Part shown: in pieces, positions 1,535 through 63,199 of the stretch
Layout: each line of letters opens with the position of its first letter
Position numbering within the stretch: the first letter of the stretch is position 1
From: Oligoflexia bacterium
Lineage (GTDB): Bacteria > Bdellovibrionota_C > UBA2361 > JBGSMV01
Direction: 5' to 3'
Assembly (NCBI GenBank): GCA_019694515.1
Contig: JAIBBU010000010.1
Coordinates: forward strand, 35,496-99,495
DNA: 64,000 nucleotides
Notes under the pieces: model-generated
The model's input: the letters and a program-made list of their open reading frames with translations, nothing else
Databases searched by the model: none
Told to the model about the DNA's origin: nothing
Translations under genes and position numbers: made by a program

Positions 1535-1611
1535 CGACCGCAGCTTCCAAATTATTTGGCAGGGGCGGTTCTTTTAGTAAGTTCTTGGGCATACGATCTA
1601 CTTGCCATAAT

Positions 1612-1714
1612 GGTAGGGATTGCCCGCTTCCGCTCATGCTACGGCGTGGCAGGCTTTCGCTCCGCTCGCAATGACAAGGGTTGTCATTGCGAGCGGAGCG
1701 AAGCAATCCCTACC
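1612..1714. repeat. MITE-like palindromic repeat, copy A (12-bp perfect terminal inverted repeats GGTAGGGATTGC/GCAATCCCTACC, internal 18-bp palindrome GCTCCGCTCGCAATGACA)
   Basis: Sequence read directly. It shares the core GTCATTGCGAGCGGAGCGAAGCAATCCCTAC with the copies near 8.4, 24.9, 36.2, 57.2 and 62.3 kb. It sits between the convergent genes 428..1534 and 1786..2220. Confidence 0.85.
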
Positions 1715-1785
1715 ATCATGCCTAGCAGCTCACCGGCCGAGGATGCGATTGAAGGGGGCTTCAATCGCGGAACTTCCGTTTGCCT

Positions 1786-5105: not shown

Positions 5106-5118
5106 ACCGGAGGCCAAA

Positions 5119-8223: not shown

Positions 8224-8376
8224 GTACGGGCTGTCTGACCAGCAGTTCGCGTTTGCTTGGCGCTCGATCGTATTAATTGCGGCTTCCGACTGATTATTCT
8301 CCGGGCTAATAGCGCATTTTTGAGGGAGGCTGCTCTTTTAGCGCTGGCTTAGGCAAACATACCTCGTGCCTTAGCG

Positions 8377-8446
8377 TTAGGGATTGCTTCGCTTCGCTCG
8401 CAATGACAGTGCTTTGTCATTGCGAGCGAAGCGAAGCAATCCCTAA
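8377..8446. repeat. MITE-like palindromic repeat, copy B (perfect 32-bp inverted arms TTAGGGATTGCTTCGCTTCGCTCGCAATGACA around a 6-nt centre)
   Basis: Read directly. It lies downstream of the RND operon, between convergent genes. Confidence 0.85.
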
Positions 8447-8504
8447 GGTTAAAGCAGGATGCAATCAATCCAATGTCGATTGAGAAGGGGCGCTCCGCCA
8501 GATC

Positions 8505-16123: not shown

Positions 16124-16546
16124 ATGGCTTTTCCAAAGATGCCGGATATCGCTTCGGTGATGACTCCGGTCCCGCATTTTGTTGGTCCTGAAACCAGCCT
16201 GGCCGAGGCTGTGCGGATCATGTATGCGCAGGAAATTCGGCATCTGCCTGTATGTCAGGCCGGGCGGGTCCTGGGACTTTTGTCAGATCGCGACGCTAAA
16301 CTTGCGCAGGCGGTGCTAAAGGGGCGGCTCGACGAAAGCAAACTTACGGTTGCTGATGTTTGTAATGCGGATCCTTATGTCGTTTCCCCCGATGAACGAC
16401 TGGATCGAGTAGTCGCGCATATGTACAAGAATCACATCGGCTCATCTGTGGTAGTGCGGCGCGATAAGCTGGTCGGAATATTTACAGTTTCCGATGTATG
16501 CCGGGAGATGACCGATCTTTTGCGTCGGCATTATCCTGACGCCTAG
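16124..16546 (+). CDS. CBS-pair domain protein
   Basis: Two CBS motifs (IRHLPVCQAGRVLGLLSDRD ; IGSSVVVRRDKLVGIFTVSD). Confidence 0.8.
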   Translation: MAFPKMPDIASVMTPVPHFVGPETSLAEAVRIMYAQEIRHLPVCQAGRVLGLLSDRDAKLAQAVLKGRLDESKLTVADVCNADPYVVSPDERLDRVVAHMYKNHIGSSVVVRRDKLVGIFTVSDVCREMTDLLRRHYPDA

Positions 16547-16727
16547 GTGAAAGACGCAATCACCCCCACGGTTGCATTGTACAAGTTACGGAACTCGAGA
16601 ACAAAATTCCGCTCATGCCAAGGCAGGCCTTCGCGTTGCTCGCAATGGCAGGGCTGAGCGCACGGAAAAACTAATAGCTGCTCCGAGAAGGCACACCAGA
16701 ACGATTTAATGCCAGGGCCTTAGCGCT

Positions 16728-17141
16728 CTACAGAAACAGTTCGCGCGAGGCGCGCAGCACATCAATATAGCTTACAATTCCTCGCAGCCGGCCGTTCTCG
16801 CCATCCACTACCGGAATTGCACCAACTTTGTATTCGACCATCAAATCGATCGCATCGCCGATCTCACTTTCGGTATCGATTGAAATCACATCGCTGCTCA
16901 TGTGGCGGCTGACCGGTTGATCGAGACGTTTCTCGAGGGCTTCTTCCTCGGACTCCAGCGGCGCCAGCAGAATGCGGCCCAGATCGCGGTCGCTGATAAT
17001 GCCGATTAGTTCGTTTTCGTCCACCACCGGAATATGCCGCACCTCAAATTCAGCCATTTTGTCCCTAACCTCACGCAAGGTGGCGGTTGGTCCAACACTG
17101 ACCGGATTAAGACTCATTATTTCATGAACTGATTTGACCAT
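16728..17141 (-). CDS. CBS-pair domain protein
   Basis: VRHIPVVDENELIGIISDRD ... VGAIPVVDGENGRLRGIVSYID. Confidence 0.8.
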   Translation of the reverse strand: MVKSVHEIMSLNPVSVGPTATLREVRDKMAEFEVRHIPVVDENELIGIISDRDLGRILLAPLESEEEALEKRLDQPVSRHMSSDVISIDTESEIGDAIDLMVEYKVGAIPVVDGENGRLRGIVSYIDVLRASRELFL

Positions 17142-23726: not shown

Positions 23727-24031
23727 GGCCCAACTCCCGCTCCTCTTTACCGTGCGCAGAATCTTTTTCCGATTTCGTGGAGCGGGTGTCGAGGCAAGCT
23801 TTTTATGCAAGAGCGTGGGAAAGTCTCCAGCCCTGCGTTCTTAGTGTAAAGCTGGCTTGTTATTGCCCATTACGAGCATAAATTTTGCTGCGGTACAGCG
23901 TCTATCCTATTTTATTAGGACCGCGCTGAGCTAGAGCATTGAACCGTTGCTAAGTGCTGCCTGATCTCGCATTCTGCACTACTGCTATATCAAGTTCCGC
24001 AGGCTGCACTAAGCTTGGGAGGAGAATTTTA

Positions 24032-24676
24032 ATGGATTATTTAAGAATTTACTTCTTACGTCACGGGCAAACCGAGCAGAGCCGCGCCACACTTTTTTGC
24101 GGCTCTGGTCTTAATCCGCCGTTGACCGCCGAGGGGCTGGAGATGGCGAATTGTGTTGCAGCAGCACACGCCAAGACCGCATGGCAGGCGATCTATAGCA
24201 GTCCGCTGCTTCGCACCGTTAGCACAGCCCAGATCGTGGCGGCGCCGCACGGCTTGCAGCCGATCCTCGACGATGGACTTAAGGAGATCGGTTTCGGGGC
24301 CTGGGAAGGCAAGACCGCCGAAGCGGTTAACACGGAATTCCATGATGACTACATCCGCTGGATGGCCGATCCGGCCTGGTGCCCTCCGACTGGCGGAGAG
24401 ACGGCGACAGTAATCGCTTCCCGTGCGCTGCCCGTAATTGAAAGAATTAGAGCAGAGATACCAAAAGGTGAAGTATTGGTCGTTTCACATAAAGCTACGA
24501 TTCGAATCCTATTATGTCAGCTGCTGGGAATCGATGTGGGACGTTTTCGTTTTCGGCTTGATTGTCCGGTTTGTTCAATCAGTGTAGTGGACTTCACCAA
24601 GCAAGGGCCCTGGCTGCGGGTGCTGGCGGACCGCTCACATCTGACGGCCCGGCTGCGTGAGCTGCCGGGAACATAG
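24032..24676 (+). CDS. Histidine phosphatase superfamily protein (phosphoglycerate-mutase-like / CobC-like)
   Basis: Begins MDYLRIYFLRHGQTE (RHG catalytic motif). GGAGGAG RBS precedes it. The conserved H in VVSHKATIRIL is present. Confidence 0.8.
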   Translation: MDYLRIYFLRHGQTEQSRATLFCGSGLNPPLTAEGLEMANCVAAAHAKTAWQAIYSSPLLRTVSTAQIVAAPHGLQPILDDGLKEIGFGAWEGKTAEAVNTEFHDDYIRWMADPAWCPPTGGETATVIASRALPVIERIRAEIPKGEVLVVSHKATIRILLCQLLGIDVGRFRFRLDCPVCSISVVDFTKQGPWLRVLADRSHLTARLRELPGT

Positions 24677-24920
24677 CAGGCGCACTTACCACCCAGGCTC
24701 AAGTCCGGGCGCATAGGCCGGAGTTCCGATATTGACCAGGAGACCGTCGCGTTCTTTGGGCGGTGCCGTGATCGGCGTGGGCTGAATCCCTGCTAATGCT
24801 TGAATTAGGGCACGAAGCTCAATGCAATATGCTTCTGTCAGGAGCGCTAGCCCCGCAAAATAATTTGTTGCACAGCGCGCCGAAACGCCGGCCGCAAACC
24901 GCTGGATTTCTACTTAGTGA

Positions 24921-24990
24921 GGGATTGCTTCGCTCCGCTCGCAATGACGATACCGCGAGGCAGGCTTTCGCTGGTTTCGCAACGAAAGGG
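24921..24990. repeat. MITE-like repeat, copy C (half element: GGGATTGCTTCGCTCCGCTCGCAATGAC plus the GGCAGGCTTTCGCT module)
   Basis: Read directly. It lies in a 530-bp intergenic region. Confidence 0.7.
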
Positions 24991-25209
24991 TCGCGCATTT
25001 AGGCAGGTATGGCGTCCTAAAAATAGGGAACATCCACAGTGGGAGATGTTCCTTATGCCGCGGACAGAATTACCCCCGGTTTCGATTCAGCAAACCGAGA
25101 TCAGTCTCCGACCGCAGAGCGCCGTTAGCCAGCAGCCGAAATCAATGACGCAGTAGATTCGATCTTTGAATTGTGGAACCTCTACCGCAGCGGCCAGCGC
25201 AGCGCTGCT

Positions 25210-26982
25210 TTACAGTCGGCCTTGATCTTTGCTCTCCCCTCGCAAAATCTGCAGCGCTTTGCGGGTAAGAAGATCTAGGAGATCGTTAGAACTACCGGGA
25301 TTACCAGGCTGTTGGCGCTCCTCGGCGGCTCCGAGAAGAATTCGCGCATGCATCCGTGCCCAGCGGATCTTCTCGGGGGTATGGCAATAGTCGAGCGCGC
25401 TCTGTAGTTCGCTGTTTTCTTCCAGCCGAATTGCGCCTTTTGCCAATTTCTCACGATCGCAATTTTCCCAGGCGCGAAGAATTCTATAGGTTAAAAGATC
25501 CTCAACCTGACGGGGACTGAGGCCGGCGCGCTGCTGCTGGATCTGTTCCGTAAGTTCTCGGTAATTTACCCCCGGCCCATCAAAGAAGATCAGGATGTCA
25601 TTCAAGAGCGTTTCGCGGCGCATGGCGCGGTACTCGTCAGAATCGATTCCCGGCAGATCGGTCTCTTTAATGCGTGAGGGCAGGCTTGCTTCCTCCTGCA
25701 GCACTGATTGCCCGGCAGTTGAGGTTGCTGTATTGCGGCCGCCGCTGCTCTGTGTCGCTGTTGCTGTGGGCCTTGCACTGCGGAGGCCAGCAGCATCGCC
25801 TCGATTTGGATCGCCGCCGGTCGCCTGATCTGGAGATGGATCGCCGGATTCTTGTTGCCGCTGTCTGCGGCGGAGCAGAAATAACAAGCCTAAGGGAATC
25901 GGATAGAGAGCTTTGGAGTCGTGATCGACATGTCCCTGCACCGTCGCATCGACTCGGCGTTTCGAGTAAATTATTTCTGCTAACTCTCGATTCAGCTCGG
26001 GATCCTTAATGCGACCAGCGCAATAGGCTTTAACCATAGTGAAGATGCGCTCGTCCTCGGTTGCGCCGCTGTAGTCCATGGAGAGTTCAGTCAGGCGGCC
26101 CCAATCCTCGTCCGAGAAACCCAGCTCCCTCCCAATCACTCGAACCCGCATGGGGCTGCTCTCTTGCAGCGCATTCATGATGCGCTTCGCGGCATCGTCC
26201 CCCCGCAGAGCCCCCAGGTCTTCGTTCTCTGGGTCAGATTCCGACAAGCTCTCAGGGCCCAAAGCGGCTGGCCCTTCTGGTGACGCGTTTCCTACGGCGG
26301 TAAGCGAATCTACGGTTGAGTCATGAAGAAGTTCTGGTCCATGCGCGCGGCGATAAGCAGCCTTAGCCCAGTCGAAGCCATGCAGTTCATCTGCAACCTG
26401 GTGCAGCAGCTGTGCGCGCACGTCGGCGGCAAAGCGGTCGTGATCTTCGGGGCGCAGTGAGCGCGCCAGATCAAACTGACGTGCGTATTCGTAGGGAATT
26501 GTGAATGTACTTTCATAGCGCTGGGTCTTATGCGAAACGGTAACCAAGCTTATCGGACAAACTGCGCTCCAGAGATCGTGAAGTGCGACATGGTAGCGCC
26601 CGGTTGCAGGATCGCGCTCGATGATGTTGACGTTGATCTCTGGGAATTTGGCCTTGGCTCCCGCCGTCGAATCCAATCCTGCGGATTCCGGAAGCGTCAG
26701 CTCAACTCCCCATTTGGTCTTGAGGTCGACAAGCGAGGGGCCTGAAGCGTGAGCACGCAGCGGTGAATCGGCAGCGTGGGCAGCTATGATTGCAGGGTCC
26801 GCCTCCGCGGTTTTCGGGTGAGCTATAGCAGCAAGTAAACCAACGATCTTGGCGATGGCGCGGAAGCGCTCCGCGATGGATTGCGGCGGACCGCCAATTA
26901 CATTTAGATCTGGTGCGGCCTCGGTGTTTGAAATGAGCCGAGCTGTATCAGAACTGGGATCTTTAGGGCCATGGCCTGCCAT
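25210..26982 (-). CDS. Large hypothetical protein (about 590 aa) with a Gly/Ser/Thr/Pro-rich disordered segment and one central hydrophobic stretch; no recognised domain
   Basis: Start moved to the ATG at 26982 (GAAAGGAGctccgcATGGCAGGCCATGGC, a strong RBS). It is transcribed divergently from the RiPP precursor gene. Confidence 0.6.
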   Translation of the reverse strand: MAGHGPKDPSSDTARLISNTEAAPDLNVIGGPPQSIAERFRAIAKIVGLLAAIAHPKTAEADPAIIAAHAADSPLRAHASGPSLVDLKTKWGVELTLPESAGLDSTAGAKAKFPEINVNIIERDPATGRYHVALHDLWSAVCPISLVTVSHKTQRYESTFTIPYEYARQFDLARSLRPEDHDRFAADVRAQLLHQVADELHGFDWAKAAYRRAHGPELLHDSTVDSLTAVGNASPEGPAALGPESLSESDPENEDLGALRGDDAAKRIMNALQESSPMRVRVIGRELGFSDEDWGRLTELSMDYSGATEDERIFTMVKAYCAGRIKDPELNRELAEIIYSKRRVDATVQGHVDHDSKALYPIPLGLLFLLRRRQRQQESGDPSPDQATGGDPNRGDAAGLRSARPTATATQSSGGRNTATSTAGQSVLQEEASLPSRIKETDLPGIDSDEYRAMRRETLLNDILIFFDGPGVNYRELTEQIQQQRAGLSPRQVEDLLTYRILRAWENCDREKLAKGAIRLEENSELQSALDYCHTPEKIRWARMHARILLGAAEERQQPGNPGSSNDLLDLLTRKALQILRGESKDQGRL

Positions 26983-27252
26983 GCGGAGCTCCTTTCGTGA
27001 GACTGAACTAGGGAACGCTGCGGGCCACTCATCCAAAGTGGTCGCTTTTAGACGCTGCCTACCTTCGTTATGGAGAACCGCAGCTCTCCGTAGCATAAGG
27101 GCGCAGGGGGATTTACCTGGGGATCCCATAAAAAATCGCGCCGTATTTTCATTTTGCAGTGCCCGACAATGTGTTAGTTAAACGGCTTAACATTTGCTCC
27201 GGGAACTGAAACAAGGTTTGCGGGGCCAGCTCAAAACCTTTTTGGAGGCTTA

Positions 27253-35753: not shown

Positions 35754-36083
35754 ATGCCGATTTACGAATATGAGTGCCCCAAATGCGGAGTGTTTGAGGT
35801 CGTTCAGAAATTTTCTGATAAGCCTTTAGACTGCAAGCCGGATTGTGAGGTCAAGAACTGTCCGCGCAAAGCCAAGCGCTTGATCTCCATGTCCGCCTTT
35901 CACCTAAAAGGCGGAGGTTGGTATAAGACCGACTACAAATCCTCGTCGACTGCGCCGGGCAAAGCCGCCGATAAGGGGACCGAGACTTCGGCTAAGGGTG
36001 ACGGTGTCAAGGAAACCGCTGCCAAGCCCGAAAACGCCAAGCCCGAAAAGAAGGATTCTAAGGTGGATAAGAAGGAGAAGTAG
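35754..36083 (+). CDS. FmdB-family zinc-ribbon protein with a Lys-rich tail
   Basis: MPIYEYECPKCGVFEV...CPRK is a CxxC...CxxC zinc-ribbon arrangement of FmdB type. Confidence 0.75.
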   Translation: MPIYEYECPKCGVFEVVQKFSDKPLDCKPDCEVKNCPRKAKRLISMSAFHLKGGGWYKTDYKSSSTAPGKAADKGTETSAKGDGVKETAAKPENAKPEKKDSKVDKKEK

Positions 36084-36166: not shown

Positions 36167-36351
36167 GTGCCATAGAGGTAGGGATTGCTTCGCTCCGCTC
36201 GCAATGACACTACCCTTCGCTCCGCTCAATGACACTACCCTTCGCTCCGCTCGCAATTGCAGATGTTCCAAGTTTCCAGGACGAAATTCGTCTCCTTGCG
36301 CGCAGCTCTGTCATTGCGAGCGGAGCGAAGCAATCCCTACCTCTATGGCAC
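36167..36351. repeat. MITE-like repeat, copy D: perfect 43-bp terminal inverted repeats (GTGCCATAGAGGTAGGGATTGCTTCGCTCCGCTCGCAATGACA) flanking a ~99-bp interior that contains an internal tandem duplication
   Basis: Read directly. The interior carries CTACCCTTCGCTCCGCTC(G)CAAT twice, and the CGAAATTCGTCTCCTTGCGCGC module also seen at about 57.19 kb. It lies between convergent fmdB-like and recO. Confidence 0.9.
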
Positions 36352-36426: not shown

Positions 36427-37005
36427 TCATGTCAGTCGTTGCAATAGTTCTTCGACTACTGCTCTGCATTTCATCGGGGTTTCTGCCGAGCGCTCGATCC
36501 AATCCATCAGCCGCAGAAAACTTTTCATGCTGGGCTGCGCCGTTTCAGCATCGGAGTGAAAGCCTGAAACCTTCAGGAGTGAAGCCAATGCTAAATGTGA
36601 GGCGCGCAGAGCGCCCTTCAAGTCAGACGACTCATTCAGCGCGGCAAGACCGAGGGCCAGGATCTCGTAAAATTCTGCCCCGTCAGGATTACCCTCCTTG
36701 ATCAACAGATCGAAGCTTTCGCAGATCAAATTTGCGAGGGCGAACTTGTCCAGATCTTCCCGCAGGCCGCGCCATGCAGGCAGCGGTGAAAAACTCTGCA
36801 GAATAGCGAGGGAGCCGCGACCGCGCTTAATTTCGAACGCACCATGGTCGAATAGGTCGAGGTTTGTCGAGAAGCGCCGCTTGCTGCTGCGGGCATATTT
36901 GGCGATCGCCGAAAGCTTGCCTTCCTGAGAGCTGAGAATCCTTAAAACCAGGTCAGACTCCCCGCTGGGAAAGGTCCGAATAACTATCCCTTCATGCATT
37001 TGCAA
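36427..37005 (-). CDS. recO: DNA repair protein RecO (shorter than typical)
   Basis: N-terminal OB-fold region GIVIRTFPSGESDLVLRILSSQEGKLSAIAKYARSSKRRF matches the RecO N-domain. The ORF is 192 aa against a typical ~240 aa. Confidence 0.65.
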   Translation of the reverse strand: MQMHEGIVIRTFPSGESDLVLRILSSQEGKLSAIAKYARSSKRRFSTNLDLFDHGAFEIKRGRGSLAILQSFSPLPAWRGLREDLDKFALANLICESFDLLIKEGNPDGAEFYEILALGLAALNESSDLKGALRASHLALASLLKVSGFHSDAETAQPSMKSFLRLMDWIERSAETPMKCRAVVEELLQRLT

Positions 37006-50188: not shown

Positions 50189-50365
50189 TGAAATCAGTTC
50201 CCACCCGTAGAAAGTGCTGTAGCAAAGTTGAGATGCAAAAACTATACAACGAGGCTTGGGCGCAATGCGACGGGATTTCGGATATATATTGCTGGGCGCA
50301 CAGGACATTGGCTGAGTACGCAGAACGACACCATGTGCAGCTTTCAACAAGGATCGAGGTGGCTT

Positions 50366-51454
50366 ATGGGTAGAGTATTTGCAATTTTGGTGGCGGTAAT
50401 AGTTGGTTTGAATGGGAGGCCCGCCGCGCTCAGGGCGGAGGATGCCAAGATTCGGATTGGCGTCTCGATCCCATTGTCCGGTCCGGTCGCAAACTACGGT
50501 GATGATATTAAGCGCGCCATTACCTTTGCTAATGAGCAGCTCTTTCGTCAGCGTTTCCAATTCCTGATTGAAGATGACAAGTGCGATCCTAAAGAGGCGG
50601 TCATCGTTGCGCACAAGTTCATTGCGCTAGAGAAGGTCAAATATGTGGTTGGATTTGCCTGCAGTGGGGCGTTATTCGCAGCTGCGCCGCTTTATGAAAA
50701 ATCCGGAATCATTGCCATGGGAACTCTGACTAGCGCCGCGAATATTAGCAATGCGGGAGATTTTATCTTTAGGACCTCTCCTAACGATCGCGATGCCGCC
50801 CAGACTCTGGGAGCATATCTAGCTTCGCATTACCGCCGTATCGGCGTCCTTTCGGAGGAGACGGATTACTGCGAAGGGATGTTGGTGGAATTATCTAAGA
50901 CTAAGGGTTTAGATCTAGTGACGGAGCGTTATCGTAGCGGAGAGTCCGATTTTCGGACCTTGCTTCTGCGCTTGCTTGCCAAGAAGCCTGAAGCGCTGAT
51001 GCTCAACCCGCAGTCCGATGAACCTCTGATCTCAATCGTGAAACAAATTCGCGCCGTGGATTCTAAAATTCCTCTGGTGGGCGCCTACTATCCGGGCAGC
51101 GCACAGTTTTTGGGTGCAGTAAAAGGTTTGGCCGAGGGAATGGTTTTCGTTGATATGCCCACCTCTACCCAGCTGATATCGCCAGATAAAGCCCGCCTTT
51201 ATCAACAATTTGTCGAGAAGTACGGTGCATTAAGAGGGGTCGATCTAACCTTTGTGGTTGCAGTCAATGCCATGATCGCAATTGATGGAGCGCTTAGGAG
51301 CGGTGGTGATCTGCGGCAGGCTCTATATCACGGCAAGTTTGAGGGACTAGCGGGACCGTTCAGCTTCGATCGGGACGGCAATGCTGATGGGATTAGTTTC
51401 GTGATGAAACATATCGTCGATGGCTCTCCGCAGCTGCTTCACAGTAAAAATTAA
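50366..51454 (+). CDS. ABC transporter substrate-binding protein, branched-chain amino acid (LivK/LivJ, type I PBP) family
   Basis: Signal peptide, then [33 protein letters not shown] precedes the ATG at 50366. Confidence 0.8.
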
Positions 51455-51724
51455 ATCCAAACGGAAGTTTTTCTAGCGGGGCTGTTTCTTGAGCGGGGGC
51501 GGAGCGCGGGTACGCGACATTATGTCCCGTCGCCGCTAGCTGAGCCATGCTAGCCGGTCCAGGTCAGCCGAGCTTCTTCAATCCTACGGCTTCCCGCAGG
51601 CATCTCTATCTCGTGAATCTGAGCGGTGCCGAGCTGCCGCTAAAATACTTCTAGAAATGATGTTGTAATCGTTTGCTAGGTGTCGGAGAGTTGAATCGAC
51701 AGCCTATTTCGAGGTCCAACCCCA

Positions 51725-53662
51725 GTGCTAAAGTCTTGTATATATTCAATTTTACTAATCGCCCTAGTCGGATGTTCGAGCCTGCCCGACTACCATTTCG
51801 ACATGGGAAAATCACTTTTGGGTTATCCTGATAAAGAGGAGCGCCAGCCGGGTAAGTTTCAGTCCGCACGCAAGTTGCCCTGGGAGAGCTGGAATAGCGA
51901 ACAGGATCTGCAAGGTAATCCCTTGGCGGAGCCGGCTATTTTGCGGGGTGATAACTATGCCCAGAACGGAGATTATCGGCGCGCGCTGACGGAGTACCAA
52001 TCGGTCAAACCAGCGCAGCTCCCGAGCGCTCTTGCCGAGACGTTAAGTTTGCGAATCGGTAGCATGTATTTGGCCCTTGATCAGGCCCAAGCTGCGCTGA
52101 AGGTTACTAGCGATTATTACAAAACCCGCCGACTCTCCGTTGAGCAGGTAGATTTTGCGCCATCATTATTTTTTGGATTTGCCTATGGCCGCATTCAGAA
52201 TGCTGAGCAAAGCCTGGCCTGGTTCTCCAGGGCGCGGTTGATGGCCCAAGCTGATCGTGCCCGTGCGCCATTCGTAGATTCGGGGCTGCGCATGTATCTG
52301 GGATCAATCCCCGATGATCGGCTAATTGGCCTCGAGACCGCGTGGTCCTCCGATAGCTATATCAATACCCAGATCGCCCAAGAGCGAGGCCGCAGACTAC
52401 GCAGCGGCGGACAGTCGACGACATATGCTGCTAACCGACCGTTCTGGTCTAGTCCTCTGGATACCCCGCAAGCGAATACCCCCGGCGCTTTAATAGTTCC
52501 TGACAGCTCGGGCCCGCTGGTGATTGGAGCTGTGCTGCCACTGACTGGCAAGTACGCGGCATTCGGTCAGAGTATGCAGCACGGCATCGACTTAGCACTC
52601 GATGCCTATAGCTCCGCGCCGACCGGAGGAGAAGCGCGGGCAGCAGTTAGGGACTCAGGTGCTACGGCCGATCAGGCGCGCGCCGCCACGATCGAACTGG
52701 TTGCAAGCGAGCATGCTTCAATCATTCTTGGACCGCTGCTTAGCGAGCTCAATGCGCCGGTGAGTGAGATTGCTTCCCAAAATCAGATCCCCCTGATCTC
52801 ATTCTCCAAGAGCAGCAGTTTTCAGGGCAGTTTTAATATCTTTAGACTTGGTCCAACCGTGGAAAGTCAGGTGCGGTCGCTACTCGATGAATGCGAGCGG
52901 CTGGGCTTGAAGCGCTATGCCATCGTCTATCCGACCGATGATAATGGGCGTGAGTTCGCGGACTCCTTCCGTCACCGGGCGGCGCTGCGGAGTCTGCAGA
53001 TTTCTAGTGAAAGCCCCTATACCAAAGGCGATAGCAATGCATTGCTGGCAATCGCACAGCAAATCGAAGCTGCCGGTGAGGTGGAGGCAGTTTTCCTTCC
53101 TGATGGTATTCCAGCGGCGGCGCACTTTTATTCCAGCCTTTCATCCGCGGCACGCGCCAAAATCAAGCTGTTGGGGACCGCCAGTTGGGATAATCAGGGA
53201 GAGTTGGCAAATTCGCGTACCGCCCTAGATGGCGCAATATTCGTAAGTCCGTTCTTTAGCGCCAGTCCGAAGCCGGTGATTAGTCAATTCGTCAAAGCGT
53301 ATCAGGCGAAATACGGAAAGACTCCAGATTTCCTAGCTGCACAAGGCTTCGATGCGGCGACCATGGCGCTCTCTGCCTTGGTGCGTGGGCGTGGGCAGGG
53401 CAATGGATTTTCACAGGCAATTTTCGAAATCGAGCGCTACGATGGATTGACCGGATCGATTCATGCGGTTCAGGATGGCGAGCTGGAAAGAACCTTCAGC
53501 GTGGTCCAGCTCAATGGGGAATCATTGGTTTCGCCGCCTGCAGCCGCAGTCCCCTCTTTTAGTGTAAGTGGGGATTCTGGAATCATCCGTTCCGGAATTC
53601 CGCCGATAGTAGATAAAGGCACAGCTAACTCGAATTCAGGTGATTTTGCGCTGCAGCGCTAA
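51725..53662 (+). CDS. LpoA-like outer-membrane lipoprotein (N-terminal TPR-like domain plus C-terminal type-I periplasmic-binding-protein fold); putative penicillin-binding-protein activator
   Basis: Lipobox LIALVGC|SS. TPR-like helices are followed by LVIGAVLPLTGKYAAFGQSMQHGIDLALDAY, a LivK-like fold. Size and architecture match LpoA. Confidence 0.55.
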   Translation: MLKSCIYSILLIALVGCSSLPDYHFDMGKSLLGYPDKEERQPGKFQSARKLPWESWNSEQDLQGNPLAEPAILRGDNYAQNGDYRRALTEYQSVKPAQLPSALAETLSLRIGSMYLALDQAQAALKVTSDYYKTRRLSVEQVDFAPSLFFGFAYGRIQNAEQSLAWFSRARLMAQADRARAPFVDSGLRMYLGSIPDDRLIGLETAWSSDSYINTQIAQERGRRLRSGGQSTTYAANRPFWSSPLDTPQANTPGALIVPDSSGPLVIGAVLPLTGKYAAFGQSMQHGIDLALDAYSSAPTGGEARAAVRDSGATADQARAATIELVASEHASIILGPLLSELNAPVSEIASQNQIPLISFSKSSSFQGSFNIFRLGPTVESQVRSLLDECERLGLKRYAIVYPTDDNGREFADSFRHRAALRSLQISSESPYTKGDSNALLAIAQQIEAAGEVEAVFLPDGIPAAAHFYSSLSSAARAKIKLLGTASWDNQGELANSRTALDGAIFVSPFFSASPKPVISQFVKAYQAKYGKTPDFLAAQGFDAATMALSALVRGRGQGNGFSQAIFEIERYDGLTGSIHAVQDGELERTFSVVQLNGESLVSPPAAAVPSFSVSGDSGIIRSGIPPIVDKGTANSNSGDFALQR

Positions 53663-53675
53663 AACCAGGAGATTT

Positions 53676-56156
53676 ATGGCAGCTAAGAAGAAGACTCAGA
53701 AGCGGGGACTTAAGAAGAAGGGCGCTCAGGAGCGTTCTAACGGTAGGGCCGGGCGGGTGTTGGGCGAGGCCGAGATCTCGCTTCCCGCAACTCTTCCAGT
53801 TCTGCCGGCCCGAGATCTGGTCGCTTTCCCATCGGTCATGATGTCGCTCTATGTTGGCAGGCCCTCGAGTGTAAAAGCGGTCGAAAATGCTAATGATAGC
53901 GACAAGCTAATCTTGATCCTGGCCCAGCGTGATGTGGAGACCGAGGAACCGCAGCCTAAAGATCTATTTAAGATTGGTGTGGTGGCGCACATCGTGCGAT
54001 CGCTGCAGGTGCCGGACGGGCGTCTAAAGGTTCTGATGCAGGGTATCGTACGCGCGCGCATCAACAAACTCGAGCGTGAGGGCAATTATTACGTCGCTTC
54101 GATCGAGCCGTTGCCTGCTTCGGATAAGATCAAGATTACTGCGGAAGACGAAGTTATCGTCAACCGCATCCGGGAAAATTTGCAGGTTTTAGTGCAGTAC
54201 GAACATTTGCCCGAAGAGATGCTGCTGGTAACCGAGGAGGTCCAGGAGCCGGGGATGTTGTCGGATGTTATTCTGGCGCACTATAAGCTGGACCACTTCC
54301 AGGCTCAGAACGCCTTAGAAGAGCTTGATCCGCTAAAACGCTTGCGCTTAACCGACAAAATTATTACCGACGATCTAAATCAGTTCTTGGTTTCGGAGCG
54401 CATTAAAGACAAGACTCAGCATGAAATGGCCAAGGGCCAGCGGGAATATTATCTGCGGGAGCAGATTAAGCAGATCCAGCGGGAACTCGGTGAGAATGAA
54501 GCCAGTCCGGACGATCTGGGACAGCTCAAGCAGGCGCTCAATACCGCAGATCTACCGGAGTATGCGCTGGCCGAAGCTAAAAAGCAGCTAACCCGCCTAG
54601 AACGCATGTCGATGGAGTCTTCCGAATATGCGCTGCTTAGAACCTACCTAGAGTGGATCTTGGATCTGCCCTGGTCGAAGCGCACCAAGGATCGCATCGA
54701 GCTAAAATTAGCGCAGCGTATCTTAGATGAAGATCATTACGGACTGGAAAAGGTCAAAGATCGCATCCTGGAATATCTGAGCGTCAGAAAATTGAACCCT
54801 GATTCCAAGGGGCCGATTCTCTGTTTTGTCGGTCCTCCGGGAGTTGGCAAGACTTCGCTTGGCAAATCGATTGCGCGAGCATTGAATCGTAAGTTTTACC
54901 GTATGTCGCTGGGCGGGATGCGTGATGAGGCCGAAATTCGTGGGCATCGGCGCACCTACGTAGGGGCACTGCCCGGCCGCATTCTGCAGGGCATGAAACA
55001 GGCCGGCAGCATTAATCCGGTTTTCGTATTGGATGAGTTGGATAAGGTCGGCGCGGATTTTCGCGGTGACCCCGCTTCGGCGCTGCTGGAGGTTTTAGAC
55101 CCGCAGCAGAACAAGGAGTTTACCGATCACTATCTTAACATGAGCTACGATCTCTCTGAGGTGATGTTCGTGGCAACTTCGAATACGATCGATACGATTC
55201 CGGAAGCGCTGCTTGATCGGCTGGAGGTAATCTACATCTCCGGCTATACCACCGAGGAAAAGGTCAAGATTGCGGAGCGTTTCCTAATTCCGCGCCAGAT
55301 GACGGAGAATGGAATTCAAAAGAAAGATGCAGTCGTGGTTACCGACAAAGCGCTGCTGCTGCTGATCGAACGCTATACTCGTGAAGCCGGCGTAAGAAAC
55401 CTGGAGCGTGAGATCGGGTCGCTGTGCCGGAAGCTCGCCCGGGAACAGGCGGAGAAAGGCAAACTCACCAAGAAAATTACCGAAGAAGCTGTGCTGCGGC
55501 TCCTCGGCCCGACCAAGTATGATCCCGAGACGACCGAATCGGGCGATGCGATTGGCCTGGTGCGCGGTTTGGCCTGGACGGCAGTCGGCGGAGAGGTTAT
55601 GCCGGTGGAAGCCTCGGTGGCGAAAGGCAGCGGCACGCTTAATCTGACCGGCCAGCTAGGCAGCGTCATGCAAGAGTCCGCTCAGGCAGCGCTCTTTTTC
55701 GCCCGTTCCAACGCTGAGATGCTGGGACTGGATACTGGTTTTCATCAGAAACTCGATATCCACATTCATGTTCCGGGGGGCGCTACTCCCAAAGATGGAC
55801 CATCTGCGGGAATCACGATTGTCACGGCGCTGGTTTCGGCGCTCTCGAAGCGTAAAGTTTCGCGTGACTACGCCTTGACCGGAGAGGTGACGTTGCGGGG
55901 GAATGTGCTGCCTATCGGCGGTTTAAAGGAAAAAGCACTTGCAGCTTTGAGATACGGGATTAATAAGGTCATCATCCCCTACGAAAACATCAAAGACTTG
56001 GAAGAGATTCCAAAGGAGCAGCGCGACAAAATTAAGTTCATTCCAGTAAAGCACGTTAGCGAAGTGCTGAAGATGGTGTTGATCGGCGACGCGCCGAAGA
56101 AGCAGATCAAGCGCAGCGCTAAACGGCGCATCAAGCCGATTCGTGCGAATGTATGA
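53676..56156 (+). CDS. lon: ATP-dependent protease Lon (LonA)
   Basis: Lon N-domain (LPVLPARDLVAFPSVMMSLYVGRPSS), AAA+ Walker A GPPGVGKTS, and protease domain DGPSAGITIVTALVSAL with the catalytic Ser and Lys. AGGAG precedes the ATG at 53676. Confidence 0.95.
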   Translation: MAAKKKTQKRGLKKKGAQERSNGRAGRVLGEAEISLPATLPVLPARDLVAFPSVMMSLYVGRPSSVKAVENANDSDKLILILAQRDVETEEPQPKDLFKIGVVAHIVRSLQVPDGRLKVLMQGIVRARINKLEREGNYYVASIEPLPASDKIKITAEDEVIVNRIRENLQVLVQYEHLPEEMLLVTEEVQEPGMLSDVILAHYKLDHFQAQNALEELDPLKRLRLTDKIITDDLNQFLVSERIKDKTQHEMAKGQREYYLREQIKQIQRELGENEASPDDLGQLKQALNTADLPEYALAEAKKQLTRLERMSMESSEYALLRTYLEWILDLPWSKRTKDRIELKLAQRILDEDHYGLEKVKDRILEYLSVRKLNPDSKGPILCFVGPPGVGKTSLGKSIARALNRKFYRMSLGGMRDEAEIRGHRRTYVGALPGRILQGMKQAGSINPVFVLDELDKVGADFRGDPASALLEVLDPQQNKEFTDHYLNMSYDLSEVMFVATSNTIDTIPEALLDRLEVIYISGYTTEEKVKIAERFLIPRQMTENGIQKKDAVVVTDKALLLLIERYTREAGVRNLEREIGSLCRKLAREQAEKGKLTKKITEEAVLRLLGPTKYDPETTESGDAIGLVRGLAWTAVGGEVMPVEASVAKGSGTLNLTGQLGSVMQESAQAALFFARSNAEMLGLDTGFHQKLDIHIHVPGGATPKDGPSAGITIVTALVSALSKRKVSRDYALTGEVTLRGNVLPIGGLKEKALAALRYGINKVIIPYENIKDLEEIPKEQRDKIKFIPVKHVSEVLKMVLIGDAPKKQIKRSAKRRIKPIRANV

Positions 56157-56179
56157 CCAGGCCCGGAGCTCGGCGCTTA

Positions 56180-57166
56180 ATGCCTAGGTCGCTATTAGCG
56201 CTGCTCCTCGCTGGAACGCTTGTGGCTGCTTCGCTGCAAGCCGAACCGCAGATCTGTGTTTACACCAATGCTAAGGGCGGGGTCGAACAGACCAACGATC
56301 TGAATCAGATCCCGGCGCGCTTCAAATCAACGGCCAAGTGTTTCACCCCTAAACAGATCAGCGGGAAGATGGAGAAGCCTGCTGAGATCGCCCTGAAGGG
56401 CAATGTGCGGGAGGAGCATATGGGGTCTTCTTTGGGCCCGATCAATTTACGCTGGCCGAGAAAGGTCGAAGTGCTGTTCGGTCGCACACCGCAGCGCGCC
56501 GTGGCGGAAGCGGCTACCGCCGTCAGCCGGGCATTAAAGCACGGCGGATTCTCGGTTGAGCTGCAACGCCTCAGTTTGCCCTGGGAAATTGTGTTCATGG
56601 ACGAAGAGCTGCCTGAAAAGCAGATTCCGGCTTATCTCGTGAGCAATTGCCATCCGGCCTGGATGACTCCGCCCGCTAATATTTATGTGGTGGGTCAGCG
56701 GGTAGTCGCAGGCTGCGGCGATAAGACGCGTCCATCAACCTCTGTAGCCGACGGTCAGTTGGCGCAGGTTCTGATTCACGAAATGGGACACGCCGTTGAG
56801 TATCAGTTGCTGCAAGGAAAGGCCACCCAAGAGCGCATGCTGGCAGAGGGGTTTGCCTGCTGGTTCGAACAGTATGCTTCCGATTTTGCGGCGGTTTTAT
56901 CGAAGGGGCAGGTTGAGCGGCAATACATGACCTGGGCTAAAGAGGCGCTGCGACAGGCGCCTTTCGGAGGGGCGTTTAGTCCCACTGCGCACGAGTATGC
57001 TAAGGCCTCGCTGCTTTTTCATGCGCTCGTTAATCGCGGGGGAATTAGCCGCCTGAGTGATGTGTATGGACGCATGGCAGAGGAGCGGCTGGATTTTTAT
57101 GCTGCTGTGAAACGCACCCTAGGCTGGGATTTGGCAAAACTTTACGCCGAAGCTGCGCGGTTCTAG
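56180..57166 (+). CDS. Secreted putative gluzincin metallopeptidase (HEXXH...E: VLIHEMGHAVEY...EGFACWFE), family unknown
   Basis: Signal peptide MPRSLLALLLAGTLVAASLQA. HEMGH, plus a Glu 22 residues downstream. It lies 24 nt after the lon stop. Confidence 0.55.
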   Translation: MPRSLLALLLAGTLVAASLQAEPQICVYTNAKGGVEQTNDLNQIPARFKSTAKCFTPKQISGKMEKPAEIALKGNVREEHMGSSLGPINLRWPRKVEVLFGRTPQRAVAEAATAVSRALKHGGFSVELQRLSLPWEIVFMDEELPEKQIPAYLVSNCHPAWMTPPANIYVVGQRVVAGCGDKTRPSTSVADGQLAQVLIHEMGHAVEYQLLQGKATQERMLAEGFACWFEQYASDFAAVLSKGQVERQYMTWAKEALRQAPFGGAFSPTAHEYAKASLLFHALVNRGGISRLSDVYGRMAEERLDFYAAVKRTLGWDLAKLYAEAARF

Positions 57167-57169
57167 GGG

Positions 57170-57300
57170 CAATATTTCGAGAACGGAATTCGTCTCCTTG
57201 CGCGCGGTTCTGTCATTGCTGTACGAGTTATGCAATTCGAGGACAGATTTTCTGTCATTGCGAACCCTAGCTTGGCGAGGGTGAAGCAATTCCTAACATT
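57170..57300. repeat. MITE-like repeat, degenerate copy F (CGAATTCGTCTCCTTGCGCGC and TGTCATTGC modules)
   Basis: Read directly. A further partial copy G (CCGCTCATGCTACGGCG...CGCAATGACAGC) lies at about 57437..57500. Confidence 0.6.
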
Positions 57301-57581
57301 AGGTCGATGTAGGCTTTGTCTCCAGATAAACGTAAAAGTTTCTTACGAGCATTCAGACTACGGCGATTGACTGGAAAATGTGCAGAAAATTCTCCTAACT
57401 TTTTCAGTCCAGAGACCATTACGACTTAAAGTTAGGGTTTCTCCGCCTCCGCTCATGCTACGGCGAGGCGGGCATTCGCTCCTATCGCAATGACAGCTCA
57501 ACGCGCACTTGCAGGAACTTCATCAACAGCGCAGCAATGCTGTCCTCGAATTACGTAACCCGTACCTTTTCCAGCCTCGTC

Positions 57582-58472
57582 CTAAGATCCAAAAAGGCGC
57601 GCAACGGATTTAAGATCGATATCTTCAGTGCTGCGCAGCGAGGATCCCACATTCCGGACTCTGGTGCGCCACGCAGCATCATCAAGGTTGGTTCGCAGGT
57701 TGCTCAAAAATTCTCTCTCATCTTGGTAAAGCACTTTGTCCCGATCTGGGCCGCTGTAGAGCTGCCGCATTTCATTAATCGCGAGGCGTCGTAAATTCTC
57801 TTCAGACCAGCTTTGGGGGGAGGGTATTTTTCTTTGATGGGGCCATTCCCAACCGGTCTTGTGGATGGAGATCTCCATGCGGCCACCCGGATCAGGACGG
57901 AACTGAATGTGATAGTCGCCAATTTCAGCGTCCGCACAGGCCAATTCGCAGCTCGAAGTTAAGTGTGCTTGTTCAACATATCTACCCGCTTGATTAATGA
58001 CCGTATAACTTGAAAATTTCCACATGCGCTCCACTCTCTGCATCACCTGCTGATCTAGACTCAAAACCTGGTCAATCTTTCGCCCGAGTCTGGAGAGATT
58101 TTCTTCCTTTAGGTATGCGTGGATGCGGCCTGCAACGAGACGTTTTACCAAAGGATTGCTCGCATCCCATGATTCGAGCGCCACTGCAACATGCAAGTCA
58201 TCAACATAGGCAATCTCTCCTCCCAACAGCTTTGTTAAAGCTGGGGAATAGCTGTGATTCGCTCCGCTGGATAGACCGATTGACTGCATGAGCTGCCTGG
58301 CCAGACCGTCATATCCTGTACTTTGAGCCGATTCGGCGGAGCGAGCATTCGCTGTAGCCGCGTTTTTTATGCCGGGCAGGGTCGCGGCGTGCAGGGCGGG
58401 GATCTCGGCGCCGCTAAGTAGAGTGCCGGTGGTTTGAAGCACCAAATTCAATTTACGAAAAAGGTCGCGCAT
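57582..58472 (-). CDS. Hypothetical protein (no recognised domain)
   Basis: Start uncertain: the ATG at 58472 has GGAGA 10 nt upstream, and the track ORF extends to 58508. Confidence 0.5.
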   Translation of the reverse strand: MRDLFRKLNLVLQTTGTLLSGAEIPALHAATLPGIKNAATANARSAESAQSTGYDGLARQLMQSIGLSSGANHSYSPALTKLLGGEIAYVDDLHVAVALESWDASNPLVKRLVAGRIHAYLKEENLSRLGRKIDQVLSLDQQVMQRVERMWKFSSYTVINQAGRYVEQAHLTSSCELACADAEIGDYHIQFRPDPGGRMEISIHKTGWEWPHQRKIPSPQSWSEENLRRLAINEMRQLYSGPDRDKVLYQDEREFLSNLRTNLDDAAWRTRVRNVGSSLRSTEDIDLKSVARLFGS

Positions 58473-58600
58473 ATGGCTGCAATCTCCAAGGGTAACTGCC
58501 TCTCTCAAGTTATGCGGCGATGGCGGGCGATGTGCGCCAGGTTCCTGCTCGCATTCAACTAACTTATTGATTGTGTTCGAAAACGGTCGCGCCAGCGGGC

Positions 58601-61733: not shown

Positions 61734-62207
61734 ATGGCTATTAACAAGGTAATGCTGCTTGGAAATCTCGGTAAGGATCCCGAGCTTCGCTACACCAACC
61801 AACAGTTCCCCGTCGCAAAATTCAGCCTCGCTACTGGTGAGCGCCGCAAGGACGCCTCAGGAAATTGGGGTGAACATACGGAATGGCATAATATTGTAGC
61901 TTTCGGAAAGACAGCAGAGCTTTGCTCGCAATATCTTAAGAAGGGTCGCCAGGTCTTTATCGAAGGACGGATTCAAACCCGTAAGTGGCAAGATAAGGAG
62001 GGCAAGGATCGCTGGACTACCGAGATAATTGCCAATAACGTGCAGTTTGTGGGTAATAAGCCCGGAGCAGGCACCGATAGCGGTGCTAGCTACACCGTCG
62101 AGACTACCAACGCCGGAAATGAACTGCTGGATTCGCTGCCGAGTGCTGACCAGGTCAGCGCCGCCGCCGAACCTCCGGCGTTTGATGACGACGATATTCC
62201 GTTTTAG
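61734..62207 (+). CDS. ssb: Single-stranded DNA-binding protein SSB
   Basis: OB-fold N-terminus (MAINKVMLLGNLGKDPELRYT) and a C-terminal acidic tip DDDIPF. Confidence 0.95.
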   Translation: MAINKVMLLGNLGKDPELRYTNQQFPVAKFSLATGERRKDASGNWGEHTEWHNIVAFGKTAELCSQYLKKGRQVFIEGRIQTRKWQDKEGKDRWTTEIIANNVQFVGNKPGAGTDSGASYTVETTNAGNELLDSLPSADQVSAAAEPPAFDDDDIPF

Positions 62208-62314
62208 CCTGGGTGCCCGTCTTGTAGGCGGGTCGGTACGATCGGTCGGATCGGCTTGGCGCCTTCCAGTGGTGCCAAGCTCCTTCAATACGCTCCTTGG
62301 TATATGTAAATAGT

Positions 62315-62403
62315 GCCATAGAGGTAGGGATTGCTTCGCTTTGCTCGCAATGACGATTCGGTGTCATTGCGAGCAAAGCGAAGCAATCCCTACCTCTATG
62401 ACA
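62315..62403. repeat. MITE-like repeat, copy E (about 38-bp inverted arms CATAGAGGTAGGGATTGCTTCGCTTTGCTCGCAATGAC around an 8-nt centre)
   Basis: Read directly. It lies between convergent ssb and the NUDIX gene. Confidence 0.85.
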
Positions 62404-62620
62404 TTAGTTGCTAGGATCAATGGGAGTATCGAAGGAAAGCCAACCCCAATGAAAATGGCGCCTCATCCTTCGGCTGCGCTATAGCCCATTTCAAAAATGT
62501 GCTCCTGCCCATTTTTGAATCGTTCCCAGTTTGGCAGGGAGACTAAAATGCCCGCGCCTCGCGTCGCCCCAGGAGCCAGCTGCGTTTACCGCACCATTCA
62601 TCCAGCCAGACATGGCGCGG

Positions 62621-63199
62621 CTAGGAGCCATTTTTGAGATGGCTCCTAGGACCTGCATGCTGTAGCTGAAAGAGTGCAAACGCTGCTACTACCAAAGCGT
62701 GCGAGATCGTTCCGGCTGCGATCATATCAATCACTTTCGATAGATCCTGCAGTTCAATAGTGATGTCCTCTCCGGGATCAAGAGCAGGGGCGGAAATTTT
62801 TCGGCACTCTTCCGCAACATACACATGCAGCTGCATGCTCTGCATCGCAGGATTGGGATAGAGCAATCCAAGTTTTTTCAGGCGCGCGCACTCAAATCCG
62901 GTCTCCTCTACTAGCTCCCGGCGGGCGCTCTCTTCCGGGTGCTCCTCTTTCTCAACGCAACCGCCAGGGGTCTCAATCGTATACTCCTCACTGCCATGGC
63001 GGTATTGCCGCACTAATACAACCTTATTGTCCGGCGTCAAGGGGATCACATTGACCCAATTTAGCCCGCGCATCAGAAAGAATTCGAACGGCAAGCCAGT
63101 CCGCGGATTGCGGCGCGTCGAGCGCCGGGCCTCAAAGATCTTGAACTTTGCAGCGAGCTCTTCAGACAGTATCTCCCATCCGGCTTTATTGGTTGGCAT
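62621..63199 (-). CDS. NUDIX hydrolase (ADP-ribose pyrophosphatase-like)
   Basis: The Nudix box GGCVEKEEHPEESARRELVEETGFE is present. Confidence 0.85.
   Translation of the reverse strand: MPTNKAGWEILSEELAAKFKIFEARRSTRRNPRTGLPFEFFLMRGLNWVNVIPLTPDNKVVLVRQYRHGSEEYTIETPGGCVEKEEHPEESARRELVEETGFECARLKKLGLLYPNPAMQSMQLHVYVAEECRKISAPALDPGEDITIELQDLSKVIDMIAAGTISHALVVAAFALFQLQHAGPRSHLKNGS

Follow-up and report, generated by a model that had tools for sequence, protein, structure and literature searches.

The question raised by the locus considered here is what a set of palindromes, dispersed between the genes of a bacterial genome and containing no gene of their own, represents and how it arose. The stretch of DNA in which they occur, called the window throughout, is 64 kb long (positions 35,496 to 99,495 of contig JAIBBU010000010.1, assembly GCA_019694515.1), and its source is a metagenome-assembled genome (MAG) labelled Oligoflexia bacterium, to which the protein MBX7137720.1 belongs. 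The element that drew attention to it, at 36167..36351, ends in a perfect inverted repeat of 43 nt, and a preliminary description, made from the letters of the window, placed it in a family resembling MITEs (miniature transposable elements with inverted repeats), bounded by terminal inverted repeats. The analysis reported here leads to a different reading, namely that the elements are probably gene-less copies, mostly head-to-head dimers, of a ~30-nt hairpin unit of the CGTC type, related to the repeats recognised by Ssn nucleases, with an Ssn presumably encoded elsewhere in the genome.

The repeats themselves are real: their core, GTCATTGCGAGCRRAGCGAAGCAATCCCTA, has eight matches in the window when one mismatch is allowed, where shuffled sequences give an expectation of none, and degenerate copies are present at the remaining reported sites. 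The perfect complementarity of the 43-nt arms holds, as does the description of a dispersed, non-coding palindromic family with no transposase inside its members. The family is not restricted to the window either, given that an extra copy lies 7 kb upstream and others occur in very many other genomes. The MITE label does not hold, because the long arms are two inverted copies of one ~30-nt unit. The 43-nt "terminal inverted repeat" is this unit plus some shared flank, inverted, a conclusion that follows from the occurrence of the units in both dimer geometries. In addition, no target-site duplication was seen at any copy when the flanks were read by eye, and no parent insertion sequence with matching ends was found in the window or in the unit-bearing loci of other genomes. 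A better label is therefore REP-like, after the repetitive extragenic palindromes (REPs), the unit being either a CGTC-tagged REP or an Ssn-related motif.

The repeat unit and its distribution

The repeated object is a structured unit of ~30 nt, of which 137 instances from other genomes were read. It consists, in order, of a (C/T)GTC head, a 5-bp clamp (ATTGC...GCAAT) that encloses an internal loop (GA/GAA) and a distal mini-hairpin, then of an invariant C that follows the clamp, and at its end of a short, C-rich tail. The window units have GA-GC-GNA-GC-GAA inside the clamp, so that the stem starts with A-T, T-A and T-A, comprises five Watson-Crick pairs, and continues with the GA/GAA loop, a 2-bp stem and a 3-nt GNA loop. 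The internal loop could potentially form tandem sheared G.A pairs, and with these counted the stem has nine levels. The head is TGTC in six window units and CGTC in two; in 281 units of other genomes, GTC is preceded by C in 68% and by T in 30%. For the triloop of these 281 units, the first base is G in 89%, the middle position accepts all four bases and the last is A, which is the signature of a GNA triloop. The sequence GCGNAGC is described as an "extraordinarily stable" DNA mini-hairpin in the relevant part of the literature on it (PMC13037366).

The unit is a conserved hairpin whose base is fixed and whose tip is free, as established by the covariation of both the distal stem and the clamp. 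The distal part in other copies consists of unrelated GC-rich stems of 2–15 bp, and 100 distinct inner segments located beside the GIY-YIG genes discussed in the next section fit the scheme GA, GC-rich stem of 2–15 bp plus loop, G(AA/TG), folding better than their shuffles (p = 1e-7). For the class of fixed length, represented by 74 distinct units, all five distal pairs vary on both sides, with 41 cells versus 5.6 in shuffles, and none of 500 shuffles reached as high a value. The clamp covaries between classes, from ATTGC/GCAAT to ATTCT/AGAAT and ATCCT/AGGAT.

These features bring the unit close to the CGTC-tagged REPs of Di Nocera, De Gregorio and Rocco (2013). In their account of the class, the tag is CGTC or TGTC (also CCTC), the stem starts with A-T and has 8–9 Watson-Crick bp, the loop has 4–5 nt and the tail is mostly CCA; the repeats, mostly inverted dimers, sit 3' of ORFs in junctions of convergent or co-directional genes, are abundant in Alphaproteobacteria, are found in other phyla too, and apparently have no dedicated transposase (PMC3733652). 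The window unit likewise has an unpaired CGTC/TGTC tag, an A-T stem start and a short C-rich tail, and its copies are mostly inverted dimers that lie 3' of genes in convergent junctions, with no transposase attached. It differs in having five Watson-Crick pairs, the GA/GAA loop and a variable distal hairpin in place of the 8–9-bp stem, and a CCCTA tail, often extended to CCCTACC, in place of CCA.

A genome scan with the 26-mer GTCATTGCGAGCNNAGCGAAGCAATC, in which two positions were left free, gave at least 120 genome loci, a figure that is a lower bound. Among the matches listed, the hosts include Bradyrhizobium, sphingomonads, Desulfobacterota, Bacteroidia, Chloroflexi, Planctomycetota, Legionellales, Omnitrophota, Fibrobacter, Bacillota and others, and they span the Alpha- and Gammaproteobacteria, Desulfobacterota, Bacteroidota, Chloroflexota, Planctomycetota, Omnitrophota, Fibrobacterota and Bacillota. 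Since many of these loci belong to MAGs, individual taxon assignments call for caution. The 26-mer is also present in at least 120 IMG/VR contigs classed as viral (L122–L241). A protein-pattern scan of the viral contigs for the GIY-YIG gene gave no relative, and a GIY-YIG match was noticed in only one of the listed contigs, where it is fragmentary (L157, 10487-10889).

The unit occurs both singly (24919-24949 in the window, and the upstream copy described below) and in dimers, and both dimer geometries are widespread; those of Bradyrhizobium, sphingomonads and many others are tail-to-tail around a spacer of 10–30 nt. Some Bradyrhizobium loci (e.g., L005, L013, L025 and L036) have tail-to-tail heterodimers of a short unit, GAGCGNAGCGAA, and a longer one, GAGGAGCGAAGCGACGAA, whose arms cannot pair perfectly.

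Closer to the window, an independent contig (L322) has, 7 kb upstream of the window, an intact unit of the "GT" variant on the minus strand at 4768-4793, with a CATAATGGTAGGG flank. Together with a degenerate long-loop unit it occupies 4598-4793, between convergent AMP-binding and DCC1-like genes. An independent assembly of the same organism (L001, ENA scaffold_10250) ends inside copy E of Table 1, at window position 36280, and this break is consistent with a repeat present in many copies in the genome. No unit is present in 20.6 kb of the nearest relative that was fetched, whose RecO is 49% identical and which shares the dnaJ-dnaK-grpE|recO synteny, and this suggests that the unit load, or its expansion, is specific to the lineage. 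Comparison with that relative gave no clean pair of filled and empty sites, the matching junction having two extra genes and no spacer. A full-text literature search for the repeat sequence returned unrelated primers only.

The partner gene in other genomes

When all ORFs within 2.5 kb of the units in the genome loci were clustered, one small family spanning three phyla emerged, a protein of ~95 aa with a Pfam GIY-YIG match (E = 6e-18); the other clusters near units were common families only, such as ABC transporters, dehydrogenases and regulators. The unit-centred loci contain three GIY-YIG genes. Two of them are bracketed exactly by inverted ATTGC-type units, the forward one about 12 nt before the start codon and the inverted one about 8 nt after the stop, and the third (L081) has the same arrangement with the clamps ATTCT and ATCCT instead. 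The layout recurs in 80 metagenome loci of the protein: a forward unit lies within 130 nt upstream of the gene in 56 of 78 (72%), an inverted unit lies downstream in 60 of 76 (79%), and units stand on both sides in 45 of 74, for a background density of 0.64 units per kb on both strands. Of the 80 loci, 10 have a cassette end made by the short pattern typical of the window, GTCATTGCGAGC-NN-AGCGAAGCAATC; six of these show the GG, GA or AA variants known from the window itself, and two have 29 nt in common with copy B. These loci show that the unit class, the exact 26-mers of the window included, constitutes the two inverted ends of small Ssn-type cassettes in other genomes.

The protein aligns without gaps, over its whole length, with the Neisseria gonorrhoeae orthologue of SsnA, and its residues Y9, Y20 and E67 align with Y6, Y17 and E64, the residues mutated by Chenal et al. 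(PMC11893778). The gene of the N. gonorrhoeae orthologue is flanked by NTS repeats that fit the published pattern, and isolate replicons of Rhizobium, Sphingobium, Novosphingobium and Planktothrix have the repeat-gene-repeat layout with other clamp sequences. Searches of NCBIfam and PADLOC gave no family for the protein, with sub-threshold matches only (a group I intron endonuclease model and PDC-S14), and its only solved relative by sequence is 1zg2, of UPF0213.

What such a protein might do with the repeats can be gauged from the Neisseria system. As Chenal et al. (2025) describe it, the dRS3/NTS repeats, which are CGTC-1 REPs, flank ssnA, and SsnA, a GIY-YIG enzyme of 94 aa, binds the hairpin on one strand, and only when the DNA is single-stranded, its cut falling a few nucleotides upstream; cleavage depends on the three nucleotides 5' of the palindrome, and binding on the C immediately 3' of it (PMC11893778). 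Both determinants, GTC on the 5' side and C on the 3' side, are invariant in the window-type unit. The survey part of the same article counts thousands of homologues flanked by Ssn-related motifs, i.e., hairpin repeats of 20–50 nt in inverted copies around a gene for a single-domain GIY-YIG protein (cd10448), and reports that 81% of the genomes in which such repeats number over 200 have a gene for a homologue (PMC11893778).

Set beside NTS/Ssn, the ATTGC-GA class has the same repeat-gene-repeat layout, GTC directly 5', C directly 3' and a hairpin of 20–50 nt, and its partner, to judge from sequence, would likewise be a single-domain GIY-YIG protein of ~95 aa whose catalytic residues and their spacing are the same, the identity to the Neisseria SsnA orthologue being 44%. 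The differences lie in the unit, ATTGC-GA...GAA-GCAAT versus the ATTCCCGCG...CGCGGGAAT of the Neisseria class, and in the window, which is without a nuclease gene.

Individual loci of the partner gene have features of their own. A Planctomycetota MAG contig (L024, CAYWBA010000025.1, 4877-5561) has the GIY-YIG cassette and its two units (about 5003-5435) inside a 126-nt direct repeat with 96% identity; read by eye, the repeat is the duplicated 5' end of a putative pheT, which breaks off in the upstream copy and runs on into the intact gene in the downstream one. The repeat may have arisen by recombination, or it may be a target duplication that is very long. In five other loci (L276, L281, L258, L270 and L244), a head-to-head dimer, composed of an inverted unit, a spacer of 8–14 nt and a forward unit, is directly repeated on both sides of the gene, and for this reason head-to-head dimers look like junctions of cassette ends. 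On a Planktothrix agardhii plasmid (L325, NZ_LR882964.1, 18847-19131), GTCATTCTGAG...GAAGAATC units stand on both sides of an Ssn-like GIY-YIG gene, itself located between an MmeI-type restriction-modification gene and the DISARM gene drmA, which is a defence-island setting.

Weighing the explanations

The repeat family and its partner nuclease are already described, and the window is a new example in a new host lineage. In the explanation that we favour, an Ssn encoded elsewhere in the Oligoflexia genome would recognise the units in single-stranded DNA, during replication, repair or transformation. The units would spread or persist as non-autonomous derivatives of cassette ends, and may accumulate in the spacers between convergent genes, where insertion would be harmless; transcription through them would then yield 3' hairpins that are very stable. 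For the head-to-head dimers, a cut about 3 nt 5' of each head would bring the predicted nick sites of both strands into the central spacer of 3–8 nt.

A number of observations count against this explanation. No ssn/GIY-YIG gene or remnant of one was found in 71 kb, made up of the 64-kb window and the 7 kb that precede it, and a tblastn search for a GIY-YIG remnant in the composites and the rest of the window, with E up to 5, returned noise only; the Ssn of this genome is for this reason assumed. Even that of Neisseria is established, in the work of Chenal et al., only as a nuclease that modulates transformation (PMC11893778), and any movement, copying or spreading of the repeats by Ssn would be hypothetical in every system. 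The published pattern of Ssn-related motifs, HGTCWYN(0-2)YYVSBRHN(0-5)WNVSBRGN(0-2)RNCYNB (PMC11893778), matches none of the window units, where only its ends HGTCWY and RNCYNB fit, and none of 154 flanks of g1-type GIY-YIG genes, which places the ATTGC-GA class outside what that article formally tested. The window tail is rare elsewhere, with CCC after the 26-mer in only 8 of 281 units; the tail is CAG (i.e., CCAG) in 123 of them and begins with TC in many others. Finally, a lone unit folds at only -2.7 kcal/mol (z = 0) under a nearest-neighbour model that does not score G.A pairs or GNA loops, and in the perfect dimers the long hairpin would compete with the fold of the unit.

The ATTGC-GA unit is present in 116 of these 154 flanks of g1-type genes, and the regular expression does find the repeats of Neisseria, Rhizobium and Sphingobium; with none of the flanks matched by the pattern and 116 by the unit, the class is a variant in sequence and structure that lies outside the pattern, distinguished by its non-Watson-Crick GA/GAA loop and its variable tip. 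The unit class with the ATTGC clamp, GA/GAA loop and GNA triloop thus flanks most genes of a large Ssn subfamily and is nevertheless invisible to the published pattern, so that the counts of association between Ssn and repeats are probably underestimates. The subfamily would offer further candidate pairs of a single-strand nuclease and its recognition hairpin. The known picture is left unchanged by these results. With the Oligoflexia MAG, CGTC-type REPs gain a host from a lineage that is poorly sampled.

A more far-reaching alternative, to which we give some credence but well short of an even chance, is that Ssn-type GIY-YIG proteins are the enzymes of a distinct class of mobile cassettes that move via single-stranded DNA. 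The perfect head-to-head palindromes of the window would then be junctions of right and left ends, either excision scars or docking sites similar to attC, and the spacer of 3–8 nt would be the nick site of both strands. This alternative is hinted at by the directly repeated dimers around the gene, by the 126-nt target duplication and by the composite at 57187-57565, which looks as if it had lost its gene. Like integron attC sites, the units are imperfect palindromes that would be recognised as folded single strands and are placed between small gene cassettes; the window-type system, unlike integrons, has no integrase or array of unrelated cassettes, and its recognition protein would be a nuclease, not a tyrosine recombinase. 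A comparison of Ssn with insertion sequences is already made in the part of Chenal et al. that bears on it (PMC11893778), so that what this alternative, if true, would add is confined to the mechanism and the junction reading.

The positions of the copies lend some weight to a third explanation, in which the elements are RNA elements of the host, that is, hairpins acting in both directions at 3' ends, whose selection in place would serve to stop read-through or protect mRNA, with no current mobility or nuclease partner. All seven intergenic sites are convergent junctions, corresponding to 7 of ~13 convergent junctions versus none of ~41 others, and lie 4–243 nt from the stop codons. A scripted count gave 6 of 13 versus 0 of 41 (Fisher p = 7e-5), the seventh being copy E, which is added after a Zn-ribbon gene replaces an artefact ORF. 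This placement counts for the favoured explanation as well, in that it matches the distribution reported for CGTC REPs in the part of Di Nocera et al. that deals with it, where such RNA roles are also proposed for REPs (PMC3733652). The dimers fold into hairpins of 32–40 bp that are very stable on either strand, with z about -13. Set against this, no run of T follows the hairpins (flanks read by eye, those of copies B, E and H included), so the dimers are not canonical intrinsic terminators, and a terminator scan around copy E flags nothing at the element. Rfam gave no family, tRNA included, at the gathering threshold across the 64 kb, and only a chance long non-coding RNA match (E = 0.74) around copy E. 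Selection in place would, moreover, leave unexplained the presence of the 26-mer across phyla and at the ends of GIY-YIG cassettes. As a complete explanation we consider it rather unlikely; as a secondary, exapted role it is compatible with the Ssn-related origin favoured here.

Two of the seven elements lie directly 3' of genes for the handling of single-stranded DNA, being 76 nt from recO and 74 nt from ssb, which may be chance with seven sites.

A fourth possibility is that the elements are REPINs, i.e., REP doublets tagged with GTAG (read on the opposite strand as GTAG-GGATTGC...) and copied by a RAYT, an IS200-like Y1 transposase, encoded elsewhere. The architecture is similar, two inverted REP-like units with a spacer folding into a long hairpin, as set out in the description of REPINs (PMC3116915), and copies A, E and H have GGTAGGG before the clamp. 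The REPIN-RAYT systems of Bertels and Rainey (2011) and Nunvar et al. (2010) resemble the present one further in that the doublets are non-autonomous and the partner gene lies elsewhere with the same repeats on both sides, its product acting on hairpins of single-stranded DNA. Here, however, the tag is CGTC and not GTAG, which occurs at only three of the seven sites, the others having TTAG or GTGAG, and is absent from the family elsewhere (281 units, with tails CCAG or TC). The partner would be a GIY-YIG nuclease and not an HUH/Y1 enzyme: a search with a profile built on three RAYTs gave no Y1 transposase adjacent to a unit, either in the window or across about 2.2 Mb of unit-bearing loci, whereas GIY-YIG genes are flanked by units in 72–79%. 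The window-type unit spans phyla, and REPIN families are lineage-specific. Di Nocera et al., for their part, report finding no RAYT flanked by CGTC repeats in their treatment of these repeats (PMC3733652), and no RAYT or transposase is present in the window. This possibility is accordingly improbable.

The original idea of classical MITEs, internally deleted copies of an insertion sequence moved in trans by a DDE transposase and bounded by target-site duplications, would account for short, non-coding, AT-poor elements with perfect inverted ends of up to 43 nt and mosaic interiors, and is nevertheless very hard to credit, given that no direct repeats were seen around any copy when the flanks were read, that the supposed terminal repeat is a self-contained unit also found alone and in both dimer geometries, that 26-mer identity across many phyla and a covarying internal hairpin are unlike the ends of insertion sequences, of which none with such ends was found in the window or loci, and that the gene with these units at its ends elsewhere encodes a ~95-aa nuclease of the Ssn family and not a transposase of a known family of insertion sequences.

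The copies in the window

The copies, labelled A to H, are listed in Table 1 with their parts and neighbouring genes.

Table 1. Repeat copies in the window, with their parts and settings (window coordinates; a point marks features given without a single strand).
Feature	Position	Strand	Description
Core GTCATTGCGAGCRRAGCGAAGCAATCCCTA	1683, 8378(-), 8416, 24919(-), 36179(-), 36310, 62325(-), 62363		≤1 mismatch
Window unit class			GGGATTGC...GCAATGAC
Copy A, head-to-head dimer	1595..1731	.	between convergent genes 428-1534(+) and 1786-2220(-, thioesterase); inverted repeat 1656-1677 / 1681-1702, 22 nt perfect, within a 41-nt 76% pair
Copy A left arm, long-loop unit	1612-1677	-	32-nt insert with CCGCTCATGCTACGGCG module between GAGCGGAGCGAA and GCAATCCCTA
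Copy A right arm, intact short unit TGTCATTGCGAGCGGAGCGAAGCAATCCCTA	1682-1712	+	
Copy B, compact head-to-head dimer	8364..8459	.	units 8378-8408(-) and 8415-8445(+), both "GA" variant, spacer 6 nt; arms 8364-8408 / 8415-8459, 45 nt, 91% complementary, gap 6 nt; lies 141 nt past the stop of AcrB-type gene 5074-8223
Copy C, single degenerate long-loop unit	16609..16650	-	head GCCATTGCGAG; module CCGCTCATGCCAAGGCA; between convergent CBS-domain genes 16124-16546(+) and 16728-17141(-)
Copy D	24919..24995	-	intact short unit with CGTC head (24919-24949), then same-orientation degenerate long-type remnant (24950-24995); no inverted partner; between convergent genes 23954-24676(+) and 25210-27129(-)
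Copy E, flagged element, head-to-head dimer	36167..36351	.	units 36179-36209(-) and 36309-36339(+); arms 36167-36209 / 36309-36351, 43 nt each, 100% complementary, 99 nt between; between Zn-ribbon gene 35754-36083(+) and recO 36427-37005(-)
Copies F and G, one composite in one intergenic spacer	57187..57565	.	between convergent genes 56153-57166(+) and 57582-58508(-)
F/G: module AATTCGTCTCCTTGCGCGC	57187-57205		
F/G: unit-like clamp GTCATTGC-12 nt-GCAAT	about 57213-57239		
F/G: second module	57221-57254		
F/G: unit F, 24-nt inner hairpin	57253-57293	+	then 140 nt
F/G: long-loop unit G	57430-57497	-	
F/G: second module, inverted copy	57532-57565		
Copy H, head-to-head dimer	62281..62436	.	units 62325-62355(-, CGTC head) and 62362-62392(+, TGTC head), both "AA" variant, spacer 8 nt; arms 62281-62354 / 62363-62436, 74 nt, 82% complementary, gap 8 nt; between ssb 61734-62207(+) and NUDIX gene 62621-63199(-)

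The seven sites comprise four head-to-head dimers and one tail-to-tail composite, in which units F and G have their heads outwards, the geometry of a cassette without its gene. Spacers of the head-to-head dimers measure 3–8 nt, except for the 99 nt of copy E, and both arms of each dimer carry one and the same variant (GG, GA or AA). Copy B forms a 32-bp perfect hairpin plus extensions (-47.2 kcal/mol as single-stranded DNA, z = -13.2), and the z values are -12.9 for copy E, folded as RNA, and -13.0 for copy H.

Some details given in the preliminary description need adjustment in the light of these data. It listed eight places that all shared the core; the exact core is present at five of the eight, and the other three (16590-16650, 57170-57300 and 57437-57500) are degenerate or long-loop variants. 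Its estimate of eight or more loci, about one per 8 kb, becomes seven intergenic sites, or about one per 9 kb. The ends that it gave for full copies, CATAGAGGTAGGG and CCCTACCTCTATG, apply to those at 36167 and 62315 and not to the others. The internal tandem duplication exists (period 25, 2.5 copies), and is located in 36167-36351, not in 24921-24990, if "copy D" was meant in the order of that list: a 25-nt piece of the left unit of copy E is repeated in tandem at 36188-36252.

The mosaic interiors, by contrast, were correctly described, as both modules recur between copies. Module AATTCGTCTCCTTGCGCGC is common to 36285 and 57187, and in copy E (36285-36303) it lies directly 5' of the head of the right unit; module CCGCTCATGCTACGGCG is found at 1630 and 57449, and with three mismatches at 16609. 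The BIMEs (bacterial interspersed mosaic elements) of enterobacteria and the RIMEs (Rhizobium-specific intergenic mosaic elements) of rhizobia are, like the window elements, intergenic mosaics of palindromic units and shared spacer modules; compared by description only, they differ from them in unit sequences and module sets.

For annotation, the palindromes account for the break of the second assembly at 36280 and for the spurious ORFs that yield artefactual peptides such as CHCERSEAIP, as had been proposed. No ORF of substance lies inside the dimers, and those that cross them are artefacts. Apart from the repeats, a gap of 1.1 kb (50614-51725) stands out between divergent long ORFs in the crude gene list, overlapped only by an ORF with a TTG start at 50228-51454.

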